Positions 3,876 to 29,159 of a DNA stretch of 32,000 nucleotides are shown here, in pieces. The DNA is taken from positions 5,448-37,447 of the forward strand of contig CAIQKM010000194.1 of assembly GCA_903872345.1 (NCBI GenBank), in the 5' to 3' direction. This DNA comes from an uncultured Verrucomicrobia subdivision 3 bacterium (GTDB lineage: Bacteria > Verrucomicrobiota > Verrucomicrobiia > Limisphaerales > UBA11358). The position numbers and the translations under genes were made by a program. Position 1 is the first letter of the stretch. Every line of letters starts with the position of its first letter. A model generated the notes under the pieces. That model worked only from the letters and a program-made list of their open reading frames with translations, was not told where the DNA came from and searched no databases.

Positions 3876-3878
3876 CCC

Positions 3879-4496
3879 TCAACGGTAAATCTTGATAACT
3901 CCTTCATTTTCGGCTGCTGAACAGAGCTCCGGGAAAAGCTCTTGAAGCTTTCCCTGGCTCAAGGAAGCCGGGTGTTCGCGGATCACGCTTGATCGAACAA
4001 CCATACTTCCAGAGAATATGAGCAGAACCAACGACCAACTTGGATTCTCCACCAAGTCAAAGAAGATGCGCATTTGTCTCTCCGGGTCTCTTTCTCTCAC
4101 ATTTGGATTCGCGTTCGAAAGCGCAACAAATTCGTTTGTCTCGTCCGACAGTGTCCGCAGCAAACGATCAGGACTCGGTGAAATCGAATTGCCAGCAAAA
4201 TCTACTGAAGCGTGCAATACGTTCGGAAGAGCGTCCCATGCGGGCGCAATTTGCACAATTTGATTAGGTCGCGAGCCGACGCCGCGCGCAAGCTCTAGCC
4301 CAATCGCAAAGAATCGGTCGTGAAGCGGGCCACCCGGACCAATGAGAGATCGCGGAGCTTTCTCGGCAAGTATTTGCAACCGAACCATAGCAGGAAATGG
4401 ACACTGCAATCTCGATAGACGCTGAATCTCGTTCAGAACGGACTCCGCCTGCGCGTGGGTCAGCTTGCGGGTGAACAATGCGGAAAATATACTCAT
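3879..4496 (-). CDS. Hypothetical protein, 205 aa, no recognisable domain
   Basis: ATG-started ORF that begins 27 nt after the stop of the TIR-NACHT gene and ends 3 nt before the next gene. Only short ORFs lie on the opposite strand. Confidence 0.5.
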   Translation of the reverse strand: MSIFSALFTRKLTHAQAESVLNEIQRLSRLQCPFPAMVRLQILAEKAPRSLIGPGGPLHDRFFAIGLELARGVGSRPNQIVQIAPAWDALPNVLHASVDFAGNSISPSPDRLLRTLSDETNEFVALSNANPNVRERDPERQMRIFFDLVENPSWSLVLLIFSGSMVVRSSVIREHPASLSQGKLQELFPELCSAAENEGVIKIYR

Positions 4497-4523: not shown

Positions 4524-7253
4524 TCATTTTTCAGGTTGCCCCAGCAACGATTGAACTGAACGCGTGAGCTTTGCCTCAAGAGCTTCCTCGGCATCGCGAA
4601 CAGCAATGCCGACAGCGCCCCACGGGTCGCTATCGCAGTCGGCAATTGCCTTGAAACGTCGAGCCAACCAAATATCGGAGACGGTTTGAAATGGACGCAG
4701 ATGAAGGGCTGCCAGAGCGGCCGACAGTGCCTTTTCTTCGTAGTTCAGAAATTCCCATGCACTGTCAACCATTGATGGTCCATAGCCAGCCCGGATTCGT
4801 GGAGTCTTCATCACCTCTGCCAACGCGTTTCCAATTTCTGTTCGCGTCGCAATCAATATGCTGCTTGGGCAAGAACCTTCGGCTTGCTGTCGTAGAACTT
4901 CAGCAACCTTGACCACAGCGGACAAATCATCGGCGAATAAAAGCAAAGCTTCACGGCAAAACTCCGCGCATCGTCGCTCAGAATTACCACTGCTCACCCA
5001 TCGCTTTGAAAGTTCACATGCTTTCTGGAACATCTCCTGACGCTCAGAAAGGTAGCGCGACATGACCGCGCCTCCTCCCTCGGCAGCGGCATTGTGAATG
5101 ATGGCGTTGAACTCTTTTTCGGCGAATTGAAAAAGATGCCACGCTGCCCCAGCCAACCCAAAATAGCCTTTGCTGTTTTTCTCCGCGTCGAGGAAATCGC
5201 TCGAAACAGACATCGTTCCCAAATTGGCCGCCTTCAACTTTCGGAATTCCTCACTAAAAAGCAAAGCGCGGGCATCCTCGAAACGGCTTGCTCCGGCTAG
5301 ATGGTAAACAACTTCAGAGAGTGCTATTTCATCTTTTTGCCAGCAGGTCAGGAAGCAATTCGCCAGCAGCCGATGACCTTCCACGAGGCTCACGAAAAAT
5401 GCTCCAGCTTTTTTCTCGTTCGTCAACCAGTCGGCAAGCGATTTGTGAAATGCCTTGATTACCTCTCGCGGTGATCCCGAATCTACAGGAAATAGAAATC
5501 CGAGAGGGCTGTTGACGTCGTGAACGTCATCCAATAAACGCTGCGCGTTGACGGTTTTCTGGATCGGTTTGACAACCACGCGGCGCGTTTCGTTAGTAAT
5601 TGGAAACAACGAGCCGAGCGGGCGAGTGAAATCGCGGAGTTCCTCGTCTTGCCAGTTGAAAAGGCGTTGAAGGATTTCCACGGGCAGCGGTTCGCGGGCG
5701 GCGAGGATGGCGCGCAGCGCGGGGCGCACGTCTTTGCGGAATTTATCCAAGTCGGGAAAGTATCGCTGGAAGTCCAGGTAGAACTTGCCGGCGAGTCCTT
5801 GCGGGAATTCGTTTGGCCGATCCAACGATAGATAATTTTTGCAAATGTCCTCGCAAAAGCTTTCGACGTAGAGGAATACGCCTTCGCTCTTATCCAGGAT
5901 TTGCTCCACGAGACGGTCGGCGTCTGGACGGTTCTGGAGTTGCACCGCCAGTTCGCGCCGCAGGTAGGCGCGGATGTCCTCGCTGTTGGCGGCGGATTTG
6001 GTCTCGAAGGGGAATGGCTTCAGCGCCTGGAAAGGCGTGGTCACGTCAAACTCCGGCCGGCTGGTGACGACCAGGCCAATCCAGTCGGGAAGCTGCCCGG
6101 CATACTGGGCTAGGACTTCCACGAGTTCGTTGCGTCCGTCCTCGCCTTGGGCACTGGCAATGCCAGCTTCGTCGAGCGCGTCAATGACGATCAGATACCG
6201 CTCACGTCCGCCGGTGATGGATAGCTTCAAGGGGTTGGTGAGCAGGCCGTCGAACAGTTCTGCGGAATTCTTCCGGTCCAGTTCGGTCAGGATCGGCAGC
6301 GTCAGCAGCAGCTTGCGATAGTCGGGCAGCCGGGTGGCAATCTGGAACGCCAGCGTGCGAATGATGCGGCAGGCGTCGCGGTGATCCGGTTTCTTCCAAT
6401 CGCAGAACTGGACGGCGATGACGGTGCCCCGGCCATATTCATGCGCGAGATGGGCGGCGAAGGCGCTCTTGCCAATGCCCGGAGCGCCCATGAGCCAGAA
6501 GAGACGTGCGTCTCGCCCGGCGGTGGTTCGCCACTTTTCAACGGCCTGGAACAGCCACGTCCGCCCGACCAGTTTCTTCTCCAGCAATTGTCGGATGCGG
6601 GCATCGGCCGCGAAATCGGAAGCCGTCGGCTTGAGCTGTTCTTGGAGCGTTTCGATTTCGCCGGCAAAGCGCCGGCTTTCGTCGCTCTCCACGACGGCGA
6701 CGATCTCGGCGAGTTTGGCCTGATACCACTGCTCCCACGCCGTCTCGCCCGCAGCGCAGCGTTCCTTCCAGTCGTGCATGTCGAGCCATTGCATGTGGCT
6801 GATGCTGGGCGGCGGTTTCACCTCGCGCTCGCTCTCGACGAGGATGGTCTGGATATTGCCGCCTTTTGCGCCAATCGCAATGCCGATTTCATCAAGGCAG
6901 ACGCCGGGATCGCGCGTGGAATGTTTCGAGAGGAAGGACAATACGCGGTTGCTCTGCAAAATGCCATCAGTGATGGCGCGCCGCCATTCGTCGCCAAACT
7001 TGATTTCGTTCTTGTCGAACCAAACATCATGGCCGCGCTGTTCCAAGTCGACTTTAATACGACGAACCAATTTCTCGTTCGCATCATGCCCGTAACTAAG
7101 GAAGATGCGGAGCGGAGCAAAAGGTTTCGCGGGAGTGAACTCGATTTTACAGTCGTAACAAACGAAGGCGACGGAGTCTGGCACAGCCATAATTTTGGCC
7201 GAGCCGCACTGAGGGCATTTGGGTTTACCCGGCATGGCTTGCTCCTGAGTCAT
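4524..7253 (-). CDS. Zinc-ribbon + TIR + NACHT/STAND NTPase + helical-repeat protein (bacterial NLR-like)
   Basis: 909-aa ORF with an ATG start. The N-terminal zinc ribbon reads CPQCGS...CYDC. The TIR domain (~6710-7105) reads RIFLSYGHDANEKLVRRIKVDLEQRGHDVWFDKNEIKFGDEW...VLSFLS...CLDEIGIAI and retains the conserved Glu. Walker A is FWLMGAPGIGKSAFAAHLA (~6455-6495) and Walker B is YLIVIDALDEA. The C-terminal ~450 aa look alpha-helical. Confidence 0.9.
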   Translation of the reverse strand: MTQEQAMPGKPKCPQCGSAKIMAVPDSVAFVCYDCKIEFTPAKPFAPLRIFLSYGHDANEKLVRRIKVDLEQRGHDVWFDKNEIKFGDEWRRAITDGILQSNRVLSFLSKHSTRDPGVCLDEIGIAIGAKGGNIQTILVESEREVKPPPSISHMQWLDMHDWKERCAAGETAWEQWYQAKLAEIVAVVESDESRRFAGEIETLQEQLKPTASDFAADARIRQLLEKKLVGRTWLFQAVEKWRTTAGRDARLFWLMGAPGIGKSAFAAHLAHEYGRGTVIAVQFCDWKKPDHRDACRIIRTLAFQIATRLPDYRKLLLTLPILTELDRKNSAELFDGLLTNPLKLSITGGRERYLIVIDALDEAGIASAQGEDGRNELVEVLAQYAGQLPDWIGLVVTSRPEFDVTTPFQALKPFPFETKSAANSEDIRAYLRRELAVQLQNRPDADRLVEQILDKSEGVFLYVESFCEDICKNYLSLDRPNEFPQGLAGKFYLDFQRYFPDLDKFRKDVRPALRAILAAREPLPVEILQRLFNWQDEELRDFTRPLGSLFPITNETRRVVVKPIQKTVNAQRLLDDVHDVNSPLGFLFPVDSGSPREVIKAFHKSLADWLTNEKKAGAFFVSLVEGHRLLANCFLTCWQKDEIALSEVVYHLAGASRFEDARALLFSEEFRKLKAANLGTMSVSSDFLDAEKNSKGYFGLAGAAWHLFQFAEKEFNAIIHNAAAEGGGAVMSRYLSERQEMFQKACELSKRWVSSGNSERRCAEFCREALLLFADDLSAVVKVAEVLRQQAEGSCPSSILIATRTEIGNALAEVMKTPRIRAGYGPSMVDSAWEFLNYEEKALSAALAALHLRPFQTVSDIWLARRFKAIADCDSDPWGAVGIAVRDAEEALEAKLTRSVQSLLGQPEK

Positions 7254-7519: not shown

Positions 7520-8335
7520 TTACACAACAAAGGCGAACAGAGACTTGGGATCCGCTGGAAGACGAACTAAATGTAACCCGCGCGGAGTGCACCAGAGTAC
7601 ATCCTCCAGCAGTTCATCAACGGCAACTCCGCTACCCATGACCACGCCGACGGTCGCGCCCAAAGACAAGGCAAGCCGGTACTCAAACGCCGCAATCTTG
7701 CCGCCGCCAAAGCCCAATAGCCGCACATCTTCAGGCTTGATGCCAGACGCTAGAACATCCTGCCAGGCATGGAGCACTTGAACGGGTGAAAATCTCGTGG
7801 TGTCGCTCATAATAAGTTTGTCATAGCGATTATCCTTTACCGCGTCCTTCGGCAGAGACTTGGGAATATAGCCGAGCAAACGAAACTTTTTGATGCTGGC
7901 ATTCGCCAGATAGACAGTAGCCTCGCCTATGCAACCGGGGACACCCGCTGTCGTGCCACCACAGATCACCGTACCGCCAAAACCCGCCAGCGCCTCCTTA
8001 AGCAATGCCGTCACGTGGATCATTTCTTCGGGCTTCATGCTGGCGGCCCCGCCGGCAACCATCAAAACTGGACTATCTATGCGGGTTGAGTCCAAGCCGG
8101 CGTTCTTCAAAGTACTCGCGGACGCGTGGTCCAAGACATATGCCAATCCATGGGCAAAGGCGGCATAATCCGGAAATTGCCTCGCGCACGCTTCGATCTG
8201 GTGCCGATGCGCTGTGGAGCAGGGATTATTGCTCATGGTTTTGCTCTGTGCCATTATGTATCTACGGCACGAATTTTCCACTTCCGAGGAATATCTCGAA
8301 TAGTCGAGTTGGCCGAAAGCCTTGGCGACAGTCAC
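7520..8335 (-). CDS. Stand-alone SLOG-domain protein of the TRPM/LSDAT type (LOG/DprA-like Rossmann fold)
   Basis: 271-aa ORF. Motifs VLMVAGGA, TVICGGTTAGVPGCIGEA, LLGYIP, LIMSD, LLGFGGGKIAAFEYRLA and VVMGSGVAVDELL occur in the same order as the glycine-rich SLOG motifs of the TRPM N-terminal MHR1/2 region (recalled from memory). The track start at 8335 is GTG; in-frame ATGs at 8254 and 8236 are alternatives. It begins 31 nt downstream of the AAA-RyR gene. Confidence 0.8.
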   Translation of the reverse strand: MTVAKAFGQLDYSRYSSEVENSCRRYIMAQSKTMSNNPCSTAHRHQIEACARQFPDYAAFAHGLAYVLDHASASTLKNAGLDSTRIDSPVLMVAGGAASMKPEEMIHVTALLKEALAGFGGTVICGGTTAGVPGCIGEATVYLANASIKKFRLLGYIPKSLPKDAVKDNRYDKLIMSDTTRFSPVQVLHAWQDVLASGIKPEDVRLLGFGGGKIAAFEYRLALSLGATVGVVMGSGVAVDELLEDVLWCTPRGLHLVRLPADPKSLFAFVV

Positions 8336-8366
8336 ATAAGATAGCTTTTTCTGTTATTGATGATGT

Positions 8367-11201
8367 TCACCGATTGAGTGGCAAAGCCTTATACTTGGCG
8401 GTTTTAAGTAATTCGGGAATGGATTTAACCGAGGAGCGGTCTTTATCCTGGTCTGACGGCGAAAGTTGCGCCCACGGAACCAAGGCATGGTGTAGCTTCA
8501 ATTCAGGGTTGCGCGGCTTGCCAAATTTCCACCCCGATCCAACGCGCTCAGCGCACCAACCGACATGTTCCGCTTTAGCCAGCCGGTCCAGGTGTTTTTC
8601 AATGGCCGCATTGAGCGGGGCCTCCCAAGCGATATCATTTGACTTTGCCTGCCGTTCTACCATAAAACCAATCAAGGAAAGATGTTCGGGAATACGACGT
8701 GCGGCTGCACGGTTGGAGGCCTTTAAATCTTCGGGAAGATCTTTGTATTCCTTTTTGACGGAAGGATCGATAGTCCACTCCAGTTCGGGATTAGCTTTCG
8801 ATTCGGCCAAGATTTTCGATTGTTTGGCATTATCCAGAAAATTAAAGTTGACCGCTGCTGCTAAATCTTCCAAATCCGGATGGTTGACGAACGCATCGCT
8901 GTGTGTCATCAGATTGTAAAAGCTCCCGGCATCGGTGTCTCTGGCTAATAATGGAGCTGGGGGCAAGGCCGAGCGGGTTAAACGCCCTTCAATGCGGCCT
9001 TGCACAAGCGCATCCAGAATTTTCTCAAACGACCGGGCTCCATGCCAATATTTGGGCACCCCGATAAGCGCACTGAGCAGCCCGGGATCAATACTCAATT
9101 CTTTCGAGTCTGGAAGTTGGAGAATGCCGCGCAGAAGTAATGCCCGGCGAACGGGCCACGTGATATCGTTTTCATCGCGCGGATTGGGGCCGAGCACGTT
9201 TAGAAACCCATGAAGCCGCGAGACAAAGTCAGGCCCCTTGAGTAATTTAAAGTCGAGAAAACGCTCCCGTTGCTCCAGAAACTTGCGTAAACGGAATTCC
9301 CGGATTTCCGGTTTCATTTCACTCAACTCCGCTTCGCCGGGCTCGACTGGTTCCGCCACGCCAAATTGTTCCAGGCATGGGCTGGTGCCGCCGGCGAAGA
9401 TAAAGATACACTTGCCGATGGGATGGGTGATCTGCCCCTCTTGAAAGGTGCCGTCTTGCATGGGGGCCAGCAGATATTGCAGCCACTTGTATTTTTGCGA
9501 ATCAAACTCATCCCAAAAGGCTACAGGCGTCACGCCTTTTAGCACTTCATCGCGAATCCGATGAAATGCCCCAATGAGTTCGTCCGGCCCCTTAAACTGG
9601 GAGAGGTTAAACTCGATAAAAGGCGATTTTGGACCAAGAATTGCCAAGGCAAGGATTTTTACCGCGAAAGATTTCCCTGCTCCCGGCGGCCCAAACACCC
9701 CAATAGATAGGGGTTTCTTTTGAATTTTCTTCTTCTCATACGCGGTGATAATGGCGTCAATTGTGCGAAGGCTTTCAATTTCGCTCCGGTCTACCGTGAA
9801 GAGGTTGCCTTTATGCAGCGCAGGCACGTCGGACAAAGTTTCCGCCGGACCGTAGCGGGCGGTCAATGCGGCTAGTCCGTACAGAGGGGTTTTATCATTG
9901 GCATCCGATACGGTTTCCGACTGCGCCAGAATGGTCCAGGAGGCGGCGCTGGCATTGAAGCGATCCGGGGAAATCTGAACCGAGGCATAACCAGTCGATT
10001 CATTGGCAATCACCTGACCCAGCTCATAAAAAGGAAATCCAGGGGGGATCTTGTTGTTCACCGGACCATGACCAAGGATGAGTAGTTTGCGGCGGGCATT
10101 TAATCCAGCGGCAATACCCGCATACATGGCTTTCGCAAATTCTTTGTGGCTGGCCAGGAGACTGGGTTTCTCGCCGGGTTTGGGACTGGGCTCCTCCAGT
10201 GCCAGTTGGTGGAGCATCAAATGGTGGGCAATGCCGGCCGTCAAGCAGCTTTGAAAGCCATAAACTGTGCCTTCGAATTGACTCGAAAAATCTCCTCCAA
10301 AACGCTCCCCATCAAAGAATAATCGGTAAGTACGTGGTTCTGCGCCAGACACCCATAGCGCTCCTCCGGACCCGAAATTCACAATCAGATTCGCGGCGTG
10401 AAGAAGTTCCCGAGCAGCTGGCATCCGGTTTAGGGTGGCAATGGTGTCTTCTACGCACCGCTCCCAGGAAAGGCGGGCGTTGATTTGCGCATCCGCCCGC
10501 CGCAGATCGGCCGCGCTAACGATGACGGTCAATCGAGGCAGGATCGGCTTAAGTGCTGGCCACAAATCTCCGCAGCAAAGCGGGTGACTCATTTTAAGCA
10601 CATAGAGGCCGCCGCCATCCTTGGATAAATCCGGCCAGATTCCCCGGCAAACTTCGTGCCTGAACAAAGTTCCACCGTCATCAATCACCGTAACACCAAC
10701 TGGATGGGCAATATTGCTTTTATTTGGGGTATAACAGAAGCCGGACTGCCGGTTTTCGGCCGGACCATATCCAAAATGACTGCCGACATCTGTTCTCCAC
10801 ACCAAGTCCTTGGTATCTTTTTTGGCTGGATGGGGAGTCCATACTCCATAGGAACAAAGATTCAGGGGCGGTTTGGTGGCAAAATCCGGCGCACTCAATG
10901 CGGGGTGGCAGGAGAAGTAGCTGGCTGGACGTACTTCGGAATGCTGCTCTGGGCGCGGAAGTGGTTCTTTTTTGGCTTTGGCCCGGTTTTCATTTCCCTT
11001 TTTCCAATCTGCGTCAGTTTTGTCCCACGCCTTCCCGAGCGCATCTCCGGAAATCACCAGTAATTCAGCGGTCAAGGCAGCGCCACCTGTTTTTTCCTCA
11101 AATACAGTGCCGAGATCAGTGATTGATGTGGCATCGGACTTCGCACCGCCATAAAGATGCGCGTCACGAACAATGTCCCCGGTCACAAGAATGGTTTTCA
11201 T
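8367..11201 (-). CDS. PfkB/ribokinase-like domain + AAA+ ATPase + C-terminal RyR-repeat module
   Basis: 944-aa ORF with an ATG start. The N-terminus reads ILVTGDIVRD...TGGAALTAELL...LIVNFGSGGALWV, which is ribokinase-like. The AAA+ core has GVFGPPGAGKSF (~9665-9700), VAFWDEFDS and IFIFAGGT. The C-terminus (~8367-8880) reads YKDLPEDLKASNRAAARRI...AEHVGWCAERVGSGWKFG...HHALVPWAQLSPSDQDKDR, a RyR-repeat pattern. Confidence 0.85.
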   Translation of the reverse strand: MKTILVTGDIVRDAHLYGGAKSDATSITDLGTVFEEKTGGAALTAELLVISGDALGKAWDKTDADWKKGNENRAKAKKEPLPRPEQHSEVRPASYFSCHPALSAPDFATKPPLNLCSYGVWTPHPAKKDTKDLVWRTDVGSHFGYGPAENRQSGFCYTPNKSNIAHPVGVTVIDDGGTLFRHEVCRGIWPDLSKDGGGLYVLKMSHPLCCGDLWPALKPILPRLTVIVSAADLRRADAQINARLSWERCVEDTIATLNRMPAARELLHAANLIVNFGSGGALWVSGAEPRTYRLFFDGERFGGDFSSQFEGTVYGFQSCLTAGIAHHLMLHQLALEEPSPKPGEKPSLLASHKEFAKAMYAGIAAGLNARRKLLILGHGPVNNKIPPGFPFYELGQVIANESTGYASVQISPDRFNASAASWTILAQSETVSDANDKTPLYGLAALTARYGPAETLSDVPALHKGNLFTVDRSEIESLRTIDAIITAYEKKKIQKKPLSIGVFGPPGAGKSFAVKILALAILGPKSPFIEFNLSQFKGPDELIGAFHRIRDEVLKGVTPVAFWDEFDSQKYKWLQYLLAPMQDGTFQEGQITHPIGKCIFIFAGGTSPCLEQFGVAEPVEPGEAELSEMKPEIREFRLRKFLEQRERFLDFKLLKGPDFVSRLHGFLNVLGPNPRDENDITWPVRRALLLRGILQLPDSKELSIDPGLLSALIGVPKYWHGARSFEKILDALVQGRIEGRLTRSALPPAPLLARDTDAGSFYNLMTHSDAFVNHPDLEDLAAAVNFNFLDNAKQSKILAESKANPELEWTIDPSVKKEYKDLPEDLKASNRAAARRIPEHLSLIGFMVERQAKSNDIAWEAPLNAAIEKHLDRLAKAEHVGWCAERVGSGWKFGKPRNPELKLHHALVPWAQLSPSDQDKDRSSVKSIPELLKTAKYKALPLNR

Positions 11202-11284
11202 AGATTATGTTTGTGGTTGCTTAAGGCGGTTATGGCCATGAGTTTGGTCGATCCACACTTCGGGCATGGAATGACCGGGTTCAT
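11198..11284 (-). CDS. Possible 28-codon micro-ORF (CxxC...HxH, zinc-ribbon-like)
   Basis: Sequence MNPVIPCPKCGSTKLMAITALSNHKHNL. The ATG lies 5 nt after the stop of the upstream gene. The stop overlaps the start of the 944-aa gene as ATGA. It fills the only gap in the operon. There is no homology support. Confidence 0.25.
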   Translation of the reverse strand: MNPVIPCPKCGSTKLMAITALSNHKHNL

Positions 11285-11288
11285 GACA

Positions 11289-13088
11289 TTATTGGGGAAA
11301 TATCCCCAACCCTTCTGCCGCCAGGGCTTCGGCCAGTTGCTCGATCTGGGCGTGGTCAATCCGCCGTTCCGTGTCGGGCAGTCTTGCCCAAGGCAATAGA
11401 TCTGGATGGCGATGCCGGTCATCGTCGCGTTTATCGTCATGCACCCAGCCGCCCAGCCAGCGTTCGGCACACCAACGCGCATGCTCCATTGGGGCAAGAA
11501 TGCGTTTTTGCTCTCGGGTAAGGGTTCGGATGGGGATTGCCCCGGCTGTGGCTTCTTTCAGTTTGCCTATCTGGTATCCGAGGGCTCGGGCTTTGATGGC
11601 AATGTGGTCGGCGGCCTGCCGGTTTGATTCCTTGAATTCCTCGCGCAATTCCTCCCACGGTACTTCAGCGGGGCGGGGAGCAATGACCTGGCCAGACGCC
11701 CGGAGTTCGGCCATCCCCCGGCAATATCCCTCATGCAGGGAGCGGGCCGTAGCTTCGTGATATTCGTGGCGGAAGGCACTTTCGCAGCAGGCATTCTCCA
11801 CCATGCCAAAGGGAATAATATCGTTATCCTTCTTGGAAACCGCATTGAGCACACCTTCCAGTGTTTTTTGTGATTTGATCCGCACACAAAGCTTGGCATC
11901 AGAACGGTCCATCAAAATTTCCTGCAAACGCAACCCCACCTCCACGGCGCTGGCGTTACTATCGAGACAGACAAAGAACCGCAGGATGGTGTCGGGCTCC
12001 GCGATCCAGCCTTCGATTAGCTTCAAGGCGACGAGGGATTGAGCCGTGGCTTGATAACACCGTAATTCACAGATCGTGTCACTTTCTAAAATAGGATAGT
12101 GAAATAAGAGATGCTGGCGGTGGTGGTCTGCCTGGCGGTCGATCACGGAAATTCGCAATTTCCGGCCATTGGCAAAATGCCCCATCTTCGCCGCCCGCAA
12201 AGCCAGGCTGCGGCCCATGCGACCAAAGCCCATTATCACCACATGCACCGTTCGCGGATCGTCCTGGGTAATTCCATCCCCATCCAACGGCAATTCTTGC
12301 AAAAGCCGGCGAGCCTCGTCATCGTATACGTCAAAAAAGTTTAGCCGGCCCCCGGTGGCTTGTCCGGATTGTTTGGTAAATTCACGCTGCAAGCGCTCCC
12401 GCAGATGAATATTCTCAAGATGCACAAAACACTCAGGACTATGTAATTGCGACGTTTTGTTCAGATCACGAACTTGTAGGGCAATCCGCAGGTTGGTTTC
12501 ATCTTCCGGAGTGACAATGATCACTTCCTTGGCAAATTCCGCCCGGGCAGCTTTCAGTACCGCCGCTTCCGTAGCATCACCAATCAAATAATAGATGCCC
12601 TCCTCATCACAAATGGAAAGCAACTCATTGTGGGGATTCTTTTCAATGACGATGACCCATTTTTTATCTTTCTGTTTCACACACTGGCGGGCCAGTTGCA
12701 ACCCCTTTTGGCCCAACCCGCAAATAACCACATGACCGCTTTGGGACTGATGTTTTAAGCTCTGCTGATGGCTGCGGGCGGCGAAAAGAAAGCCTTTGAA
12801 CAAACTGACACCAAAAATAACCGGGGCCAGAAACCGGGCGATTTGCAATTCCCATGGCAATGGACCCGGCACATGGTCAAAATGCATGTGGAACAGCCGC
12901 ATGGAGTTGTAAAAAGCATCCACCAAACCTTCCGGATGTCCCTCAGGTTCAGGTACCTGCATAAACCCGAAGGTGCCCAATATTAGCGACAGGATCCCCA
13001 AACCCAGCACCGTCATCCACTGACGACGAGCCGCTCCGTCGTGATGATGGACGGCAGTCGTTTCAGGTTGATGTTCGGAGTCACTCAT
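11289..13088 (-). CDS. Channel-like membrane protein: 2 TM + pore-helix-like segment, two RCK/TrkA-N Rossmann domains, C-terminal RyR-repeat module
   Basis: The track ORF is 11289..13097 with a TTG start; I prefer the ATG at 13088 (MSDSEHQPE...), which matches the paralogous fragment at 20430. TM1 is VLGLGILSLILGTFGF. The pore-like segment is DAFYNSMRLFHMHFDHVPGP (~12860-12925). TM2 is IARFLAPVIFGVSLFKGFLF. The RCK motifs are HVVICGLGQKGLQLA...GDATE and VHVVIMGFGRMGRSLA. The C-terminus (~11289-11745) reads PWEELREEFKESNRQAADHI...MEHARWCAERWLGGW...HPDLLPWARLPDTERRID. Confidence 0.85.
   Translation of the reverse strand: MSDSEHQPETTAVHHHDGAARRQWMTVLGLGILSLILGTFGFMQVPEPEGHPEGLVDAFYNSMRLFHMHFDHVPGPLPWELQIARFLAPVIFGVSLFKGFLFAARSHQQSLKHQSQSGHVVICGLGQKGLQLARQCVKQKDKKWVIVIEKNPHNELLSICDEEGIYYLIGDATEAAVLKAARAEFAKEVIIVTPEDETNLRIALQVRDLNKTSQLHSPECFVHLENIHLRERLQREFTKQSGQATGGRLNFFDVYDDEARRLLQELPLDGDGITQDDPRTVHVVIMGFGRMGRSLALRAAKMGHFANGRKLRISVIDRQADHHRQHLLFHYPILESDTICELRCYQATAQSLVALKLIEGWIAEPDTILRFFVCLDSNASAVEVGLRLQEILMDRSDAKLCVRIKSQKTLEGVLNAVSKKDNDIIPFGMVENACCESAFRHEYHEATARSLHEGYCRGMAELRASGQVIAPRPAEVPWEELREEFKESNRQAADHIAIKARALGYQIGKLKEATAGAIPIRTLTREQKRILAPMEHARWCAERWLGGWVHDDKRDDDRHRHPDLLPWARLPDTERRIDHAQIEQLAEALAAEGLGIFPQ
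12775..13088 (-). repeat. Intact copy of a ~310-bp segment (5' end of the RCK-RyR gene) duplicated in direct orientation at ~20110-20430
   Basis: Nucleotide-level similarity is visible. For example, ggcgatttgcaattcccatggcaa...catggagttgtaaaaagcatc matches ggcgatttgcaattcccacggcaa...catggagttataaaatgcatc, and gatgatggacggcagtcgtttcaggttgatgttcggagtcactcat matches gatgatggacggcagtcatttcaggttgatgttcgtcttcactcat. Confidence 0.8.
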
Positions 13089-13171
13089 CTGATCCAACTT
13101 TGAAATAGTAACGACATCCTTATGCCGGAGACCAGTTTTTTGATGATTAAATTAGAGAATTTCAAGCTGAC

Positions 13172-13269: not shown

Positions 13270-14295
13270 TCAAAAAACAGATCCATGTCTACGTGGAATA
13301 TTTTCCGGCACAAGACTGCCTGGATGCTTATATCTGCCTATCTCTTGGGTCTGGCCAAAATAGGGATAATAATTTGGAAATTTTGCCACCAATAGTGACT
13401 CCGCTTGCGCGTATTTTCTAAACTGCCTAACAAATCTGATAGCATTGGAAACCCAATCCCCATGCTGATACTGATAATCATGCTTAACCACCAGCGACTG
13501 ACGGTGAATGACACGAAAGCCCTGTTGCAATAGACGAAAGCAAAAATCAATATCCTCGCACGCGGCGTTGGGAAATGATTCATCAAACCTGAATTGCTCC
13601 GCTAAGTGCCGGCTGACAACCAAGTTGCAGGTTGGTCCATACAACAAGATGTTGGTTCCCTGGAAGCATCGACCATTCAGGGTGCCGTTGATCTCATGAT
13701 ATTTGTCAAACCAAGTAGCATTGGCAGAATCTGTGCGACCTGACACGCAGTGAATATATGGGTTTTCAACCAGACCGGCGATCGCTTCCGAAACCCAATT
13801 TGATTCCGGGACACAGTCTGAATCTGTGAATAATATGACATCGGCCCCATTTTTTAATGCCACATCGAGCCCTTGATTTCGGGATGCCGCCGGTCCTTTT
13901 GATTTTTCATTGGTCAAAACGTGAATGGTTTCAGGCAGTCGGGACCAAACATCAGAGCCGTCATTGATTACAATAATCGCCGCTGTTTGTTCGACCAGTT
14001 TGTCGATACAGCGCTGCAGTAAAGCAAACTGGGCTTCCGACCTGCACTTCGCCGGAATAATTACCACGCCCTGGGATCGTTGGTTGACTCCATTACGTAA
14101 AATCTGGGGCGGAAGTTCGAGCACCGCTTGGGGCTGGTGTTTTGAACTTGTGACACGGCCGGTTTTTGATGCCTTGTAAGCGATGACCTCAAGGATTTTG
14201 GTCAGCAAAAAACGTTTTCGGCCGGCGCGCCCGCGCATTTCCTCCCACCAGTAATCAAAAGTCTCGCCACTGGGCAAATGAACCAACGAACTCAT
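13270..14295 (-). CDS. Family-2 glycosyltransferase (GT-A fold)
   Basis: 341-aa ORF. Motifs are VVIIPAKCRSEAQFALLQRCIDKLVEQTAAIIVINDGSD, GPAASRNQGL and ILFTDSDCVP (DxD). The start overlaps the upstream stop as ATGA. Confidence 0.85.
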   Translation of the reverse strand: MSSLVHLPSGETFDYWWEEMRGRAGRKRFLLTKILEVIAYKASKTGRVTSSKHQPQAVLELPPQILRNGVNQRSQGVVIIPAKCRSEAQFALLQRCIDKLVEQTAAIIVINDGSDVWSRLPETIHVLTNEKSKGPAASRNQGLDVALKNGADVILFTDSDCVPESNWVSEAIAGLVENPYIHCVSGRTDSANATWFDKYHEINGTLNGRCFQGTNILLYGPTCNLVVSRHLAEQFRFDESFPNAACEDIDFCFRLLQQGFRVIHRQSLVVKHDYQYQHGDWVSNAIRFVRQFRKYAQAESLLVAKFPNYYPYFGQTQEIGRYKHPGSLVPENIPRRHGSVF

Positions 14296-15272
14296 GCGTC
14301 ACCTCCCAGCCAGGCACAATTCCGGCAATATGAATCCTGTTTGTGAGACTGGCGGAATGCTTCCGCCGGACCAGAGTTGAGGATTTGTACTATGTTTCCA
14401 TCCCGGATATGCCCCAGCTTGCGGGGATGAAACATATTGCATGGCGTCACAAATCCATCGTACTGGATGCACGTCTCACGGTGGAGTGCTGGGCAGGCTG
14501 ACCGGGAACCGTTTGATTTAACCGCCGTATGCAAATCTAATTCGATTCCTTGGATCTGGTCGGGGATCAGGCACGGCAGACCGGCGGCATCCAGCAATGA
14601 CTTGGCTGCGATGAAGGCTTTGCGAATGGTTGCCCATTCTGTAATAACCCGATTTAATACGCGATGATCCGGCAAATCGCTCCGGACCACATTATAAATG
14701 AGTCCGAATTTATAGGACTGCGCCAGCCGGGCGATATCGGTAATGCGATGAAGGTTTTCAGCCTGAATGGTGAAAACAATAAAGGGTCGTGGTTGCTGAT
14801 CGCGGAGGAGGTTAAGGTTGCGCTCCATATATTCCCACCGCGCACCTCGTCGGATTTGCGACAACTCCACCGAATCGGACGAATCCAGCGAGATAAACAG
14901 TTGAACCCCTGCGACTTTCAGTAATTCAACCCGTTCAATGTCTCGGATGTTCAGATTGGTAAAGAGATGCAAGGCTGCCGCCGGCCATTTGTCCCGGATG
15001 GCTTTGAGAAACGCAGGGAATTGTGGATGAATCGTGCTCTCCCCACGACCATTCAGCCGCACGACCTCCGGTGGATGGGGAAACGCCGCCAGAACCTGAT
15101 TTAGCGTTGCCTCGGTCATGAAGTAGCCAGGTTGGTTGCGCTCCTTAACGAAGCCACACATGATGCAGGAAAGGTTGCAGTTGTGGCTGAGTTCTAAAAT
15201 CAGCTCGCGCGGCCGGATCAGTGGAGTCAGTTCCGTTGATTGCATTTGAGCACTTTGCACGGGAGGTTGCAT
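14292..15272 (-). CDS. Radical SAM enzyme with C-terminal SPASM-type domain
   Basis: CxxxCxxC motif in ELSHNCNLSCIMCGF. The C-terminal Cys-rich region reads CPALHRETCIQYDGFVTPCNMF...KLGHI...YCRNCAW. The longest track ORF (to 15446) would overlap the upstream gene by 220 nt. In-frame ATGs at 15272 and 15245 give 46- and 19-nt overlaps, so the exact start is uncertain. Confidence 0.85.
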   Translation of the reverse strand: MQPPVQSAQMQSTELTPLIRPRELILELSHNCNLSCIMCGFVKERNQPGYFMTEATLNQVLAAFPHPPEVVRLNGRGESTIHPQFPAFLKAIRDKWPAAALHLFTNLNIRDIERVELLKVAGVQLFISLDSSDSVELSQIRRGARWEYMERNLNLLRDQQPRPFIVFTIQAENLHRITDIARLAQSYKFGLIYNVVRSDLPDHRVLNRVITEWATIRKAFIAAKSLLDAAGLPCLIPDQIQGIELDLHTAVKSNGSRSACPALHRETCIQYDGFVTPCNMFHPRKLGHIRDGNIVQILNSGPAEAFRQSHKQDSYCRNCAWLGGDA

Positions 15273-16054
15273 TGATGCATGGCTGCTTGGACACGGTCTG
15301 CGTAGTCGCCTGCCAGCATATTCGTTATCTCGTCGCGCAGCAAATTTCCAAGGGGCTGCTGGCAACCTGGCATCCAGGACTGCTGGAAACAGGTAAAAAC
15401 ATCGCCATTGGGCAGGATGGAAAGATTCCTGCCGGCGGCATGACAAATTTCATTTTCTTGCACCTGCTTCTCCTTGGCCGGCAGAACAGTCCATTCGCCG
15501 CCAAAGCCTTCCGCCATGTAATCCTGAATACTGTGAAAAACCCCGAGTTCATCAGCAAGCGCCCTGACATCGGCCAGATACTCTTTGGTTTCTGACGCAA
15601 GCACCGACTGGATGCTCAATTGATCGGGTCTGAGCACACTACGGGCATATCGTAAGTGTTTAAGAACGGTGTCCATCGTATCCCGTCCACGGACGAACTG
15701 CCATTGCTGCTGGTCAACGGTGTCGATGGAAACCACGATGTGAATATTTAGGTGGGCAACCTGATTCATGAACTCTGCATCCAACAAAACCCCATTGGTG
15801 ATCAGCACGGTACGACAAGAATGTTGCTTGATGGCATGGAGCAGGCCGAGGATGCGTTCGCGAAATAGCAACGGCTCTCCACCCACGATGCAAATTTCCT
15901 TAAGCTCCGGCAGTGAATTTATGGCTCGCGCTACCAAGTCATGATCCAGCGGTTTGAAAGCCGGTCGAATGGCCCAATGATGGCATTTCGAGCAGCGCTC
16001 GTTGCAGGCGAACGAAATCAGGTAATAAAGATTTGTTGGTGAGAAGGCTTTCAC
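15227..16054 (-). CDS. Radical SAM enzyme with short twitch/SPASM-like C-terminus
   Basis: 275-aa ORF. CxxxCxxC motif in YLISFACNERCSKCHHW, plus GGEPLL. The C-terminus reads ICHAAGRNLSILPNGDVFTCFQ...PLGNL...CNLPCKVLKC. It starts 22 nt after the stop of the SbcC-like gene. Confidence 0.85.
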   Translation of the reverse strand: MKAFSPTNLYYLISFACNERCSKCHHWAIRPAFKPLDHDLVARAINSLPELKEICIVGGEPLLFRERILGLLHAIKQHSCRTVLITNGVLLDAEFMNQVAHLNIHIVVSIDTVDQQQWQFVRGRDTMDTVLKHLRYARSVLRPDQLSIQSVLASETKEYLADVRALADELGVFHSIQDYMAEGFGGEWTVLPAKEKQVQENEICHAAGRNLSILPNGDVFTCFQQSWMPGCQQPLGNLLRDEITNMLAGDYADRVQAAMHQCNLPCKVLKCNQRN

Positions 16055-16076
16055 TTAAACGCCGGAGTTGTCTTTG

Positions 16077-18815
16077 TCACACTGCCTCGTGACTTTGAGA
16101 ATTAATTTCATGAGGATTGTATCTTGGTGATTTCAACGTGATTGTTGTCGCCCCCAGGGATGCATAATCGGCTGGATTACAGGAGAGAACGATCACTTGG
16201 AGCCCACGCGTGGCGGCCAGATCTAACATGCGCTGAAGCTGATTCACGCGCTCGGGATCGGAGTATGCGAATGCATCGTCGAAGACAATGGGCAGACATC
16301 CGCCGTACTCACCCGCGAGAACCTCGGCCATCGCCAGACGTACGGCAGCCGCAGTTTGCTCCTTCGCCCCGCCGCTCAGCGTATCGAAAGCAAAAGGGGC
16401 GCCACCGGAATTCGGCCGAGAAAGGCGAAGGCCGGTGAATTCGTTATTTTCCAAATCAACCTGAACTCGCGCCCCCACACCAAATACACACTGGAGATAT
16501 CCCGAAATTTTGTCCGCGAGCGGTTGGGTGAATTGCTCCGACAAATTTTTTTGTTCTTCCTCGAACAACTGATTTAGCAATGCAATGGCCTGCGCCTGCC
16601 TCAACACACTGTTTCGGTGATCGGTGGCGGACCGAGCCTTTGCCGCGGCAGTCGCCAACTCGGTGGCCGGGTCTTCACTGCCATCTGATATGAGGGCAGC
16701 CTTGGCTACGGCAATCTGTTTCCCGGCCTCGTTTTGCTCAGCGGTTTTTTCTTTGATGGCACGCACGATCCGGGTGCGATCACTCTCCAAAAGTTCTGGT
16801 TGCAGGGAGATGATGGCGTTGGTGGTACCTTTGAGAAGTTGGGTTGCCGCCTCTTTGGCGGCTTCACACTCGACCAGCGCCTGACTTCGGAAGTTGTCAT
16901 CTCCATGGGTTTTTTGCAGCAGATCGAGTTGAGCATTTAAACCAGTCAGTTTTGCTCTTTGCTTCTCAGTCTCCAGCCGCTTCTCGGCCAATGACTTTTC
17001 CACAGTCGCGAATTTTTTACCCGCACGCTCATAAATGGTTTGGTTTGCGGTTTCTAGGTCTTCGGCTTCACTTAATTTTGCCCCCAATGCCTTCGCAGAG
17101 GATTTAGCGTTAACTTTATTTTCCGGAACTGGCACATCGGATACCACAGCCGCGAGACGCTCGACGCTGGCATTAGCGGTGGTAAGTTCATTCAGAGCAT
17201 ATTGCAGTTCTTGGTCGATTTCCACCGCTCCCATTCCATCCAGTTCGGCCTGGACGATTTTAATTTGGGAGCTAATCTCGACACGGCTCGCATGAGCTTC
17301 TACTGCCTGCTTTACGGATTGAATTCCCAATGAATCAAGAAAGTCCTGAAGCTCTTTTAACGCATCGGCTTCGGTCTGACGAGCTTCGGCGAGACTGATG
17401 CCTCCGCCTGGTTGAATCCGTAGGCGAACCGTCGAACCGATCCGAACCTCGGTGTCTGCTGTGAGAATTTGCCGTTGCCCGACCTTGATGGACTCCCCAC
17501 CCGCGTTTACTGGTTTGTCGGCATCAATGACTTCCAGCCCAGTTGCCATCGCCTGGAGCGCGGAACGGGCGTTGGAGCATAAGCCGTCCAACTTTTGTAT
17601 TTTTACCAGATCGGTTTTGTCAAAGTTCGGCAATTTAGCGAGTTGCTTTTCCAACCCAGAAAGTTTGTCGCGGAACTTGGAAATCTTCTTTGCTTTAGCA
17701 TCAAGCTTGGCGTGGAGCTCGATTTTTTCGAATTGTAAAATGTGCGACAAAGCCAGGTCGCGCCGGAACCTTGCGGTGCGAACCACCTCCGCTGCATTGC
17801 GATATGCTGTTTCTGCCATCGCCGCCTGGCTCTTGGCCTCCTGGCAAGATTCCGCCAGTTCATTGATTGCTTCATCCTGGGGTTTCAGGTTTGCCTCAAG
17901 CTCAGAAATTTCCCTGCGGGTTGCGACAATCTGTCGATTGGCAGTATCCAATGCATTATACCGGGCAGTCGCACCTTTCGCTGCGTGAGATTGCTCAATT
18001 TCTTGTTGGCGCAGTTCTACCAGCTGTCGCGAATTGGTTTCAATGGCTTCTTGTTGTTTCGACAAGCCATCAAGGATTTTACCGCTCTCGGCCAGAGTTC
18101 GAGATGCGCTCTCCAAGTCGGCAGCAGCCGAATCGAGCTTCTGCATTTGATCCTTGGCACTCGCAAGCCGGTCTAGAGAAGCAATGCAGGCTCGTTCGGC
18201 GCGTTCAAGTTCAGATCCAACCTTTGGCTTGTCCGCTTGGGTGTAAATTTGTTCTCTCGCATCGGCGAAATATTTCGCCGTGCGGACATCGAGTTCAGAC
18301 TGTAGCGCAGCGGCGCCACCCAGGTGCTGCAAACGTTGAAGTAATGCATTTTGCTGTGCGGTGGCGTGCTCCGATGGATCGTTGCCGGCCTGCCCCTGCC
18401 AAACCCAAAGGTGAGCCCATTGGATCGGAATGGCTTTGCCGGATATGCCAGGCTCCACGCTAAGCAGACGGGCCAACTCGCTTTCAGCGGCATCGCCCGT
18501 TATCAAAACCGCGTTGGAAGGCGTCAAGGAGGTGCTGCCGGTGGCGCCGAACCGTTTTTTCAGAACGTATGTGTGGCCACCAGCTTCAAACGTCAGATCC
18601 ACCTCCGGGTGACCAGCGTGCAGTGCAGAGTTTAACGCCCGGTGGTATTCAGTATTTCCTTTGGCTTTTAAAAATAAAGCGCGATGCACCGCCTCAATCA
18701 GGGTACTTTTGCCGCTTTCATTCGGACCGCCAATAAGCGTGAGGGAGGGGTCAAAGTCCAGCTTCAATTCACGATGCAGCCGGTAATTTCGAAGAACAAC
18801 TGAGATGAGGTGCAT
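16077..18815 (-). CDS. SbcC/Rad50/YhaN-like SMC-family ATPase
   Basis: 912-aa ORF. Walker A is TLIGGPNESGKSTLIEAV. A long Q/E/A/L-rich central region looks like coiled coil. The signature motif is LSGGAKEQTAAAVRLAMAEVL and Walker B/D-loop is LPIVFDDAFAYSD. Confidence 0.9.
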   Translation of the reverse strand: MHLISVVLRNYRLHRELKLDFDPSLTLIGGPNESGKSTLIEAVHRALFLKAKGNTEYHRALNSALHAGHPEVDLTFEAGGHTYVLKKRFGATGSTSLTPSNAVLITGDAAESELARLLSVEPGISGKAIPIQWAHLWVWQGQAGNDPSEHATAQQNALLQRLQHLGGAAALQSELDVRTAKYFADAREQIYTQADKPKVGSELERAERACIASLDRLASAKDQMQKLDSAAADLESASRTLAESGKILDGLSKQQEAIETNSRQLVELRQQEIEQSHAAKGATARYNALDTANRQIVATRREISELEANLKPQDEAINELAESCQEAKSQAAMAETAYRNAAEVVRTARFRRDLALSHILQFEKIELHAKLDAKAKKISKFRDKLSGLEKQLAKLPNFDKTDLVKIQKLDGLCSNARSALQAMATGLEVIDADKPVNAGGESIKVGQRQILTADTEVRIGSTVRLRIQPGGGISLAEARQTEADALKELQDFLDSLGIQSVKQAVEAHASRVEISSQIKIVQAELDGMGAVEIDQELQYALNELTTANASVERLAAVVSDVPVPENKVNAKSSAKALGAKLSEAEDLETANQTIYERAGKKFATVEKSLAEKRLETEKQRAKLTGLNAQLDLLQKTHGDDNFRSQALVECEAAKEAATQLLKGTTNAIISLQPELLESDRTRIVRAIKEKTAEQNEAGKQIAVAKAALISDGSEDPATELATAAAKARSATDHRNSVLRQAQAIALLNQLFEEEQKNLSEQFTQPLADKISGYLQCVFGVGARVQVDLENNEFTGLRLSRPNSGGAPFAFDTLSGGAKEQTAAAVRLAMAEVLAGEYGGCLPIVFDDAFAYSDPERVNQLQRMLDLAATRGLQVIVLSCNPADYASLGATTITLKSPRYNPHEINSQSHEAV

Positions 18816-18827
18816 AACGGTAACCCT

Positions 18828-20495: not shown

Positions 20496-20640
20496 GTTTG
20501 AGTTCTGCAAGAATGCCATAGGCGATTTCCCACGGGACGGCCGCGTCACTGGCCATAGGAAATTCCGGGGCGCTGAGGAGGCTTATGAGCTGGCCGACGA
20601 ATGAGTGTCGGGTTGCGATTCGAGCAGGACGAGGAGCTGC
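20496..20640 (-). pseudogene. Degenerate, frameshifted fragment homologous to the 23372-23806 ORF (direct repeat copy A)
   Basis: The sequence cccacgggacggccgcgtcactggccataggaaattccgg...gagctggccgacgaatgagtgtcgggttgcgattcgag matches cccacggggcggccacgtcactggccacgggaagttccgg...gagctggccgagaaagggggtgtccggttgcgattcgag at 23541-23637. A 1-nt gap in copy A breaks LLESQPDT.../...MASDAAVPWEIAY relative to LLESQPDTPFLGQL...VASDVAAPWDITY. Confidence 0.6.
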
Positions 20641-20739
20641 TTAGATGAATATAAACTCGAAATAAATTATATGATTTGGATTCGCCAAGAAGCGATATGC
20701 TTGCCTTGGCAGTTGCATCGCTGCAAACTAAAAACGCAA

Positions 20740-24567: not shown

Positions 24568-24612
24568 AAATGTAGTTGCGATAGGCCGGTTCCTCCAAGC
24601 CTAAACGTTATT

Positions 24613-26608: not shown

Positions 26609-26727
26609 GGCGAAGTGGTTTAATTCAAGCTGGCCGAAGGTCAATCTGGCAGATGTGCGGCAAAAATCGAGTGTTTTTCATAATCCGTGAGCAGCCAGTT
26701 AAACGAGCCGGGGCCGAGCGGCGAGCC

Positions 26728-29117: not shown

Positions 29118-29159
29118 GAGCAGTCCTGGCTGCCCAATGCGCAATGCTTCCCTCAAAGT

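Follow-up and report, generated by a model that had tools for sequence, protein, structure and literature searches.

A modular RyR-centred locus with channel-like, AAA+ and SLOG proteins beside TIR genes in an uncultured verrucomicrobial bacterium: a tentative nucleotide-signalling conflict system

A stretch of 32,000 nucleotides from an uncultured Verrucomicrobia subdivision 3 bacterium (assembly GCA_903872345.1, contig CAIQKM010000194.1, positions 5,448 to 37,447), here called the window, contains three neighbouring genes, A, B and C, which encode a SLOG protein, an AAA+ ATPase ending in a RyR domain, and a channel-like membrane protein with two RCK modules, which likewise ends in a RyR domain. 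We tentatively regard A, B and C as parts of a modular, RyR-centred nucleotide-signalling conflict system, operating together with TIR proteins by a Thoeris-like logic, and place the probability of this reading at roughly 0.45. The SLOG, RyR and GsuK-fold evidence was counted in its favour, alongside the linkage to TIR genes. A preliminary description of the window, made from the sequence alone, had already considered a response to an NAD-derived nucleotide; by analogy with the phage RyR proteins of two preprints of 2026 such a link now appears much more plausible. The adjacent TIR gene had not been counted as part of the system in that description, and the present results suggest that it belongs in the proposed system.

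Together with a micro-open reading frame (micro-ORF) the three genes form four co-directional reading frames on the minus strand, in the order C, micro-ORF, B, A, followed by a TIR-NACHT gene and, farther on, by a DUF4062-STAND-WD40 gene:

11289-13088, minus strand: gene C, 599 amino acids from ATG; a TTG at 13097 gives 602 amino acids
11198-11284, minus strand: micro-ORF, 28 amino acids, MNPVIPCPKCGSTKLMAITALSNHKHNL, read from the sequence
8367-11201, minus strand: gene B, 944 amino acids
7520-8335, minus strand: gene A, GTG start, 31-nt gap after B
4524-7253, minus strand: TIR-NACHT gene, 266 nt downstream of A; Pfam TIR_2 (1.4e-20) and NPHP3_N/NACHT
past the window start: DUF4062-STAND-WD40 gene, 1507 amino acids

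The micro-ORF starts 4 nt past the stop codon of C, and its TGA overlaps the ATG of B as ATGA. The co-directional layout described earlier, including this overlap, was confirmed by the sequence, with the start of A depending on the choice of start codon: candidates are GTG 8335, ATG 8257 and ATG 8236, the last of which is used in public gene calls (238 amino acids, 130-nt gap after B). The window is identical to the environmental metagenome contig ENA ERZ18624032 (locus L001 in our numbering), on which the same array runs on into the 1507-amino-acid gene. The TIR-NACHT protein consists of a Zn-ribbon, a TIR domain (residues 50-162) and a STAND NTPase, in this order; its candidate catalytic glutamate, as read from the sequence, is E122 in C-L-D-E-I.

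The two RyR domains are located as follows:

11292-11756, minus strand: RyR (Repeat12-type) domain of C, residues 445-599
8370-8774, minus strand: RyR domain of B, residues about 810-944

Both exceeded the gathering cutoff of Pfam RyR (PF02026; 27.4 bits), C with 49.2 bits (6.3e-13, residues 533-597) and B with 43.6 bits (3.6e-11, residues 863-935), and phmmer matched the domain of C to the R12 repeats of RyR1/RyR2 with E values of 9e-15 to 1e-10. Two phage proteins with this domain have been described. RyDEP of phage DyoEdafos is a RyR-domain glycosidase which cleaves 2'/3' cyclic ADP-ribose (cADPR) by means of H75, W78, H100 and D117 (PMC13232231); RyR Tad, gp68 of phage vB_PatP_CB1, is a sponge which binds 3'cADPR with a dissociation constant of 43 nM, the contacts being H129/W132, K147/H154 and K170/D171 (10.64898/2026.06.04.730250). 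Both are homodimers, in which single RyR repeats pair via helices 1 and 4, and both preprints note, as a puzzle, that they are homologous to the ryanodine receptors of animals (PMC13232231; 10.64898/2026.06.04.730250). The RyR domain of B keeps all six gp68 positions, each conserved to at least 90% in its family: H879 (22/22), W882 (22/22), R897, H904 (21/22), K920 and D921 (21/22). In C the corresponding H536 (59/59), W539 (57/59), R554 and D578 (55/59) are present. Throughout an alignment of gp68 with B, C, SLOG-RyR and mini-RyR sequences, H129, W132 and D171 were invariant, at an identity of the B and C domains to gp68 of about 24-31%. A tblastn search of phages with the RyR domain of B recovered phage RyR proteins, including gp68; the same search with the domain of C gave no match.

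The RyR domains of B and C shared 28.8% identity within a locus and 28.5% across loci (permutation p 0.34). Since matched docking partners should be alike, and these modules are not, the RyR modules of B and C are, judging by sequence, better read as ligand sensors or processors than as docking modules; the control through shared RyR modules which had been proposed earlier did not hold up here, nor did it in A, which has no RyR domain. Probably the domains of B and C dimerise like the phage proteins. It is possible, though on the whole doubtful, that the host RyR proteins in general (B, C and the RelA/SpoT-SLOG-RyR families) are cellular receptors of cADPR-type signals made by TIR domains.

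Stand-alone mini-RyR open reading frames of about 95 amino acids were found next to B in 15 of 80 loci (examples, with locus numbers of the survey described below: L076:9676-9960, L021:4609-4917, L153 in the gap 1528-1847, L037:3941-4225, L055:1356-1643); in L021 and L153 they lie in the gap between C and B. The one from L076 matches residues 848-937 of RyR3 (E 2e-55) and the "putative ryanodine receptor" 3NRT of B. thetaiotaomicron (8e-32). By their sequences these small proteins look like host-encoded counterparts of the phage sponges.

The AlphaFold2 model of C (pLDDT 90.3, pTM 0.85) has a first transmembrane helix (TM1) and a long second one (TM2), between which lies a short re-entrant helix; two Rossmann modules and, at the C-terminus, the helical RyR domain follow, with these boundaries:

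12744-13037, minus strand: TM1-pore-helix-like-TM2 segment of C, residues 18-115 (TM1 18-44, helix 55-67, TM2 79-115 in the AlphaFold2 model)
12294-12734, minus strand: RCK1 Rossmann module of C, residues about 119-265, Pfam TrkA_N
11769-12251, minus strand: second Rossmann (RCK2-like) module of C, residues 280-440, a fold match to the tandem RCK of GsuK/TrkA

Pfam TrkA_N matched RCK1 with E 5.4e-22 and 78.7 bits (residues 123-216), and only weak Rossmann matches were obtained for RCK2, a module supported by its fold. The GxGxxG motif of RCK1 is intact among the 59 aligned family members (G124 59/59, G126 58/59, G129 53/59), as is the acidic residue at the end of beta-2 (D/E149, 58/59); the second module has G287 in 59/59, G289 in 54/59, G292 in 58/59 and D317 in 55/59. 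With Foldseek the best match of C was GsuK (4gx1/4gx5, E 9e-12), followed by the TrkA ring, MthK, Slo1 and RyR3 Repeat12; the best-matching GsuK chains were full-length, TM-scores were 0.38-0.57, and C matched the four-helix Repeat12 of RyR3 (9l9b) with E 4e-6. Of the earlier label "MthK-like", the predicted fold with two transmembrane helices and tandem RCK modules is retained; the best match is GsuK, not MthK, and C is to be placed nearer GsuK because of its two RCK modules per chain.

The loss of the K+ filter, previously noted for C itself, extends to its relatives, since neither GYG nor TVGYG occurs in any of the 59 aligned members. A conserved helix, D-A-[LF]-Y-x-[SA]-x-[QR]-[LM]-[FL], precedes a loop [LM]-H-x-P-H-F-E, 11 residues long in C, which stands in place of TVGYGD; conserved residues in this region include Y60 (58/59), H69 (44/59) and R85 (55/59). 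The transmembrane segment had no Ion_trans_2 match in Pfam and no significant sequence match in the PDB; as no sequence match to channels supports it, the putative pore is proposed from the fold. The family comprises at least 202 clusters.

Two kinds of apparent variant of C were seen. P0018, a metagenome protein of 965 amino acids, combines a C-type RCK part and RyR (530-586) with TIR_2 (625-729) and the beginning of an AAA_16 STAND domain from 803; this fusion of C to TIR forms one cluster on one contig and is possibly a gene-calling artefact. Minimal C-like proteins of about 260 amino acids (L030:11800-12573, L041:12706-13494, L044:12775-13554) have an N-terminal segment of about 120 residues and a single TrkA_N, without RyR, and follow B and the SM family described below.

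B combines three parts, of which the RyR domain was given above:

9882-11201, minus strand: PfkB/ribokinase-like fold of B, residues 1-440, by Foldseek
9102-9794, minus strand: AAA+ core of B, residues about 470-700, with Walker A GPPGAGKS (504-511) and Walker B WDEFD (563-567)

Pfam AAA was matched narrowly (21.6 bits, cutoff 21.2), and the bpMoxR profile remained below its cutoff (20.8 vs 27); Walker A and Walker B are invariant columns in 51 sequences. From the AlphaFold2 model (pLDDT 88.6) Foldseek retrieved AAA+ unfoldases and activators (ClpB/Skd3/ClpX/NtrC1) at about 1e-6 and RyR3 Repeat12 (6uhh) at 2e-6. The N-terminal domain was matched to fructose-1-phosphate kinase and ribokinase (2abq 1.6e-5, 6whj 1.8e-5, TM-scores 0.41-0.43). 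It has no Pfam PfkB match, and the kinase motifs NxxE and GAGD are not recognisable; when the B family was compared with E. coli RbsK by hhalign, the probability was 0.17, and a link by sequence was rejected. Thus, "ribokinase-like" applies to B at the level of the fold. The family is very large, with 1734 representative clusters at 50% identity (E<=1e-30) and more than 445 loci in species-representative genomes of many phyla. In one locus (L074:14020-16047) a TIR_2 domain is fused to a phosphofructokinase domain, 1.3 kb from the B gene.

A is a member of Pfam LSDAT_prok (PF18171; E 1e-9, 38.4 bits, cutoff 25.4). Its SLOG domain extends over about 7598-8071, with the motifs GGT..G and GGG.IA..E.R invariant in the family. 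The motif-by-motif parallel to TRPM2 which had been drawn earlier was not recovered: neither the A sequence (phmmer) nor the A-family profile found a TRPM chain in the PDB, the only matches being weak ones to LOG proteins (E 0.046), and the connection of A with TRPM rests on membership in LSDAT_prok. The Pfam content predicted for the three proteins was found for LSDAT_prok, two RyR domains, AAA and one TrkA_N; PfkB was recovered as a fold only, and the second TrkA_N as a fold with weak Rossmann matches.

The nearest relatives of A end in a C-terminal RyR domain. Longer relatives are [Nudix]-RelA_SpoT-TPR-LSDAT-RyR proteins of 690-1015 amino acids, while the A of the window ends directly after its SLOG domain, and the 266-nt spacer between A and TIR-NACHT shows no trace of a RyR domain; the A of the window is a stripped-down form of these [Nudix]-RelA/SpoT-TPR-SLOG-RyR proteins, without the RyR domain. 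As the relatives of A carry RyR, all three genes are linked to this domain at the family level; in the window A is not. Full-length relatives were found in L089:3772-6816, L025:3704-6616, L015:1807-4356, L017:3448-6018, L063:7805-10363 and L146:11786-14260; in L015 the Nudix domain is a separate gene of 135 amino acids. The pairing of SLOG and Nudix in these proteins echoes TRPM2.

A survey of neighbourhoods covered 80 genome loci centred on B and 80 metagenome loci centred on C, with profiles built from the families and checked against Pfam. B and C occurred together in 9/80 B-centred and 10/73 C-centred loci (about 12%), and both together with an LSDAT-SLOG gene in three loci only besides the window (L015, L063, L089). 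The trio is one combination from a modular network, not the conserved operon which it had been taken for. TIR-type genes are the most consistent partner across the relatives: a TIR or DUF4062 gene was present within 10 kb in 46 of the 80 B loci and in 22 of the 35 C loci of at least 8 kb (58-63% across both gene sets, counted without a matched control set), and as the immediate co-directional downstream gene in 11/72 B and 11/47 C loci (15-23%). For the view that DUF4062 is TIR-like, hhalign of local alignments gave a probability of 0.13, and as the likeness was not shown, the two families are counted separately for the neighbours of B. Among the large co-directional ones (n=30), 9 had TIR_2 and 10 DUF4062; among the small ones (n=112) there were 13 with TIR_2, 8 with ThsB_TIR and 4 with SLATT_1.

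Mostly the linked genes encode TIR/DUF4062-STAND-TPR/WD40 proteins, with TIRs of the ThsB type as well; further partners are LSDAT SLOG proteins, the SM family, mini-RyR open reading frames and SLATT. Other RyR open reading frames were present in 15/80 B loci and 24/80 C loci. Locus L087 has the order B, DUF4062-STAND, C, ThsB_TIR, TIR_2, and L089 the order C (60% identical to the C of the window), TIR-FHA, Nudix-RelA_SpoT-SLOG-RyR, B.

The commonest partner of B, in 37/80 loci, is an unannotated family of about 185 amino acids, designated SM, with the motifs GVTGHR, LAEGADR, WDG and GGTG. Examples are:

L075:4670-5254: SM gene
L030:11222-11800: SM gene
L043:7061-7648: SM gene
34 further loci: SM genes

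SM usually lies directly downstream of B, where A is situated in the window; it is fused to B in L071 and L058, and elsewhere it heads proteins of 500-650 amino acids. In Pfam there was one weak match, to the SLOG family YpsA (E 0.003), hhalign against the A family gave a probability of 0.1, and the SM profile had no match in the PDB. From its sequence SM may be SLOG-like.

From the domains, folds, conserved residues and gene associations we infer a ligand, a direction of signalling, a pore activity and a role in defence, as follows. A TIR protein which senses infection would convert NAD+ into a signal derived from ADP-ribose (ADPR), for example a cADPR isomer; its source would be the adjacent TIR-NACHT protein in the window, and a ThsB-like TIR or a TIR/DUF4062-STAND-TPR/WD40 protein elsewhere. 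The single C-terminal RyR repeats of C and B would dimerise and bind the signal in a His/Trp/His/Asp pocket. C would form a GsuK-like tetramer, with the ligand acting on its tandem-RCK gating ring and with a pore that lacks K+ selectivity; non-selective opening could then compromise the membrane and abort the infection. In B the ligand would switch on a MoxR/Clp-like AAA+ motor, with the PfkB-like domain being probably non-catalytic and binding a ribose or nucleoside. A may likewise bind or process nucleotides of this class, perhaps buffering or hydrolysing them or setting a threshold.

Several points weigh against this proposal. The pore and the channel activity of C are predictions from its fold. 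In the RyR domain of C the phosphate-contact position 561 varies (S28/H14/N14), and the residue equivalent to K170 is isoleucine. No RyR domain is present in the A of the window, whose part in the system is conjectural. The three genes do not make up a conserved operon, the TIR frequencies lack a matched control, and the likeness of DUF4062 to TIR has the low hhalign probability given above. Most of the linked TIRs are fused to STAND, a class which the 2025 Thoeris survey set aside as likely NAD+-depleting effectors (10.64898/2025.12.03.692087). B was without any partner family in 20/80 loci, some of them amid housekeeping genes (SecA, PTPS, RadC). The closest homologue of C (71% identity) adjoins an HATPase_c_3 gene and a TPR gene, both ahead of it, encoding 689 and 384 amino acids; B, SLOG and TIR are absent at its loci L085:838-5926 and L086:6709-11797. 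The literature contains no experiment on any host RyR-domain protein. Finally, Repeat12 of animal RyR3 binds ATP/ADP with the same residues (PMC13232231; 10.64898/2026.06.04.730250), so that an ordinary adenine nucleotide is a conceivable ligand here.

The last point leads to the notion of energy or NAD-state sensors, in which the RyR pockets and the Rossmann sites of C would bind ATP, ADP or NAD(H), and the module would react, without a dedicated messenger, to a metabolic collapse caused by TIR-STAND NADases or by infection. Besides Repeat12 (PDB 6uhh and 9l9b are among the fold matches), this idea draws on the GsuK structures 4gx1 and 4gx2, which carry ADP or NAD, on the GxGxxG motifs and acidic residues kept in both RCK modules of C, and on the prevalence of STAND-fused TIRs. 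We consider it unlikely: the affinity of the phage RyR proteins for cADPR isomers is in the nanomolar range, typical signalling components (ThsB-type TIRs and SLATT) also lie next to B, and the fusion of Nudix and RelA/SpoT to SLOG-RyR points to a dedicated nucleotide.

A, B and C could also be separate single-gene units, gathered in variable islands and having no joint mechanism. The low co-occurrence of B and C and the rarity of the full trio would agree with this, as would the partnerless loci (for C 30/73, mostly short contigs) and the different partners of the closest C homologue; a promoter and terminator scan of the locus, which gave counts at the level expected from shuffles, was uninformative. 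Such an assembly by chance seems improbable in view of the tight co-directional spacing with its ATGA overlap, the recurrence of the same families in other orders across phyla (L015, L063, L089, L087, L043, L066, L135), the rare RyR domain carried by all three families (in the case of A, by its relatives) and the fusion of C to TIR in P0018.

The preliminary description had treated the RyR domains as homotypic docking modules, by which a SLOG sensor and the AAA+ protein assemble on a channel-like effector and control it. Single RyR repeats do dimerise via helices 1 and 4 in RyDEP and RyR Tad; animal Repeat12 is a pseudo-dimer of two repeats, which makes B-C heterodimers conceivable, and several RyR proteins are often encoded in one locus. 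Docking is nevertheless a quite improbable function, as the SLOG protein of the window has no RyR module, the likeness between B and C domains is no greater within a locus than across loci (0.288 vs 0.285), the residues common to all RyR modules are the ligand contacts, and B and C are mostly found without each other.

Host RyR proteins, and perhaps the SLOG and Nudix proteins, might instead be enzymes which degrade TIR signals and thereby set thresholds or switch off immunity. The catalytic His/Asp dyad of RyDEP is kept in B and C, mini-RyR proteins are encoded beside B, and Nudix domains accompany the SLOG-RyR proteins. The sponge-type RyR proteins, however, keep both His and Asp without catalysis, and the dyad is thus no predictor of activity; that the domain is joined to a putative membrane pore and to an AAA+ motor would fit a sensor-effector logic better, and signal termination appears very unlikely. 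That C is an ordinary RCK-regulated subunit of a K+ channel or transporter, with A and B as unrelated metabolic proteins, is hardly credible and was rejected: some C homologues are annotated as "voltage-gated potassium channel Kch" or "Trk ... NAD-binding subunit" and some B loci lie amid housekeeping genes, but the filter is missing in 59/59 members, Ion_trans_2 is not matched, all NCBIfam Trk/Kch scores for C are far below their cutoffs, and no K+ uptake genes are found near C, the surroundings being of TIR/STAND/insertion-sequence (IS) type.

The surroundings of the module in the window include the following genes:

20605-23181, plus strand: TIR-NB-ARC-TPR gene, by Pfam
24613-26016, minus strand: TIR_2 protein of 467 amino acids, with the TIR_2 domain C-terminal

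With TIR-NACHT and the DUF4062-STAND-WD40 gene, four TIR-type genes are thus present in the island, in agreement with the TIR/NLR surroundings reported before. An IS21 element (IstA-like 27528-29156, IstB 26728-27531) and a Sel1-repeat protein (24070-24567) were also found; the region 24070-29156, with the IS21 element, the TIR_2 protein and the Sel1 protein, marks the area as a mobile, TIR-rich island. Between TIR-NACHT and the 1507-amino-acid gene, at 3159-4496 on the minus strand, lie two genes without family match (205 and 238 amino acids), the product of the latter having several hydrophobic stretches. Upstream of C and co-directional with it, 13270-19994 (minus strand) encodes a GT2 glycosyltransferase, two radical SAM/SPASM proteins, an SbcC-like ATPase (PADLOC LmuB-like, 1e-17) and an SbcD-like phosphoesterase, none of which accompanied B or C at the other loci. 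In its sequence, the micro-ORF peptide PCPKCGSTKLMAI is similar to the first half of the N-terminal zinc ribbon of TIR-NACHT, KCPQCGSAKIMAV (7139-7217, minus strand). It was not conserved in any related locus, being present only in copies of the same contig, and is probably not a conserved gene.

The statement that no named defence system has this gene set was upheld, as PADLOC and NCBIfam assign none of A, B and C. With the profiles of PADLOC-DB v2 (2023) A and C had no match, and B matched only mad8 (E 0.002) over a P-loop stretch of 36 residues; nothing exceeded the NCBIfam cutoffs for any of the three.

The preprints of mid-2026 left the function of many host-encoded RyR proteins open, and the present locus family offers an answer which can be tested. 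Here, beside TIR genes, a RyR domain with an intact pocket is carried by a channel-like membrane protein, by members of a very large, uncharacterised AAA+ family and by SLOG/RelA-SpoT/Nudix proteins. If the proposed system exists and host RyR proteins are receptors of TIR-made signals, it would represent an undescribed major branch of bacterial TIR immunity with a new sensor domain and new effector classes, and the RyR sponges and glycosidases of phages would be captured copies of a host receptor domain. It would also be a bacterial antecedent of the ligand modules of animal RyR (cADPR/ATP) and TRPM2 (ADPR, SLOG and Nudix), and it could become testable why these two Ca2+ channels, which are tied to cADPR/ADPR, use modules with bacterial relatives.

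Among known systems, the NTP-dependent conflict systems of multicellular bacteria of Kaur et al. (2020; PMC7159879), with MoxR-vWA ternary and STAND-effector systems, share with the present locus family a MoxR-like AAA+ protein (here the weak bpMoxR match), TIR-STAND-TPR/WD40 neighbours and a modular swapping of parts, mostly in Planctomycetota, Chloroflexota, Acidobacteriota and such. They differ in that no vWA partner, as in the MoxR-vWA ternary systems, was seen here, and that the combination of PfkB-like and RyR domains is unique to B; RyR and RCK have 0 occurrences in PMC7159879.

GsuK, the multi-ligand-gated K+ channel of Geobacter (PDB 4gx0-4gx5), resembles C in the two transmembrane helices and pore helix predicted for C and in having two RCK modules per chain, of which C keeps the Rossmann nucleotide-binding motifs. 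Unlike GsuK, C lacks TVGYG and a sequence match in the transmembrane part, has an additional C-terminal RyR domain and occurs in a conflict-system context. As in TRPM2 and the animal RyR, the locus family unites LSDAT SLOG, Nudix (TRPM2) and RyR repeat with a pore-like protein; the modules are, however, on separate bacterial proteins, the pore would be of the K-channel type with two transmembrane helices, not six, and A has no direct sequence match to TRPM chains.

The Thoeris survey lists types I-XI in 29 configurations, with an "ion channel" effector in type X and SLOG effectors in types I, III and IX, and for ThsA of type I the sensing of TIR signals by SLOG is established (10.64898/2025.12.03.692087). 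Common to Thoeris and the locus of the window are an adjacent TIR gene, a membrane effector (putative in the window), the location in a variable island, and effector domains known to bind ADPR derivatives made by TIR, namely SLOG (ThsA) and RyR (phage anti-Thoeris proteins). In contrast to Thoeris, the proposed sensor is RyR, a term not found in the text of the survey or in the supplements searched (10.64898/2025.12.03.692087), and the two effector families lie outside its 29 configurations; the TIRs are mostly fused to STAND, and several RyR proteins and an AAA+ ATPase are present in place of one effector. When plasmids with a type X TIR were sought by tblastn, 12 records were obtained; the four inspected, H1, H2, H3 and H10, encode Thoeris of type II, in which the partner is a macro-domain protein.

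Apart from the two phage preprints, a literature search returned nothing on host RyR-domain proteins, an earlier in-silico mention of SLOG/RelA-SpoT/RyR neighbourhoods being possible. With RyDEP and RyR Tad the present proteins have in common the family PF02026, the same ligand-contact residues at the same spacing, and a single repeat which is expected to dimerise. Those phage proteins are small soluble sponges or glycosidases which defeat immunity, whereas the RyR domains described here are host-encoded, fused to a pore-like membrane protein and an AAA+ ATPase, and situated beside TIR genes.

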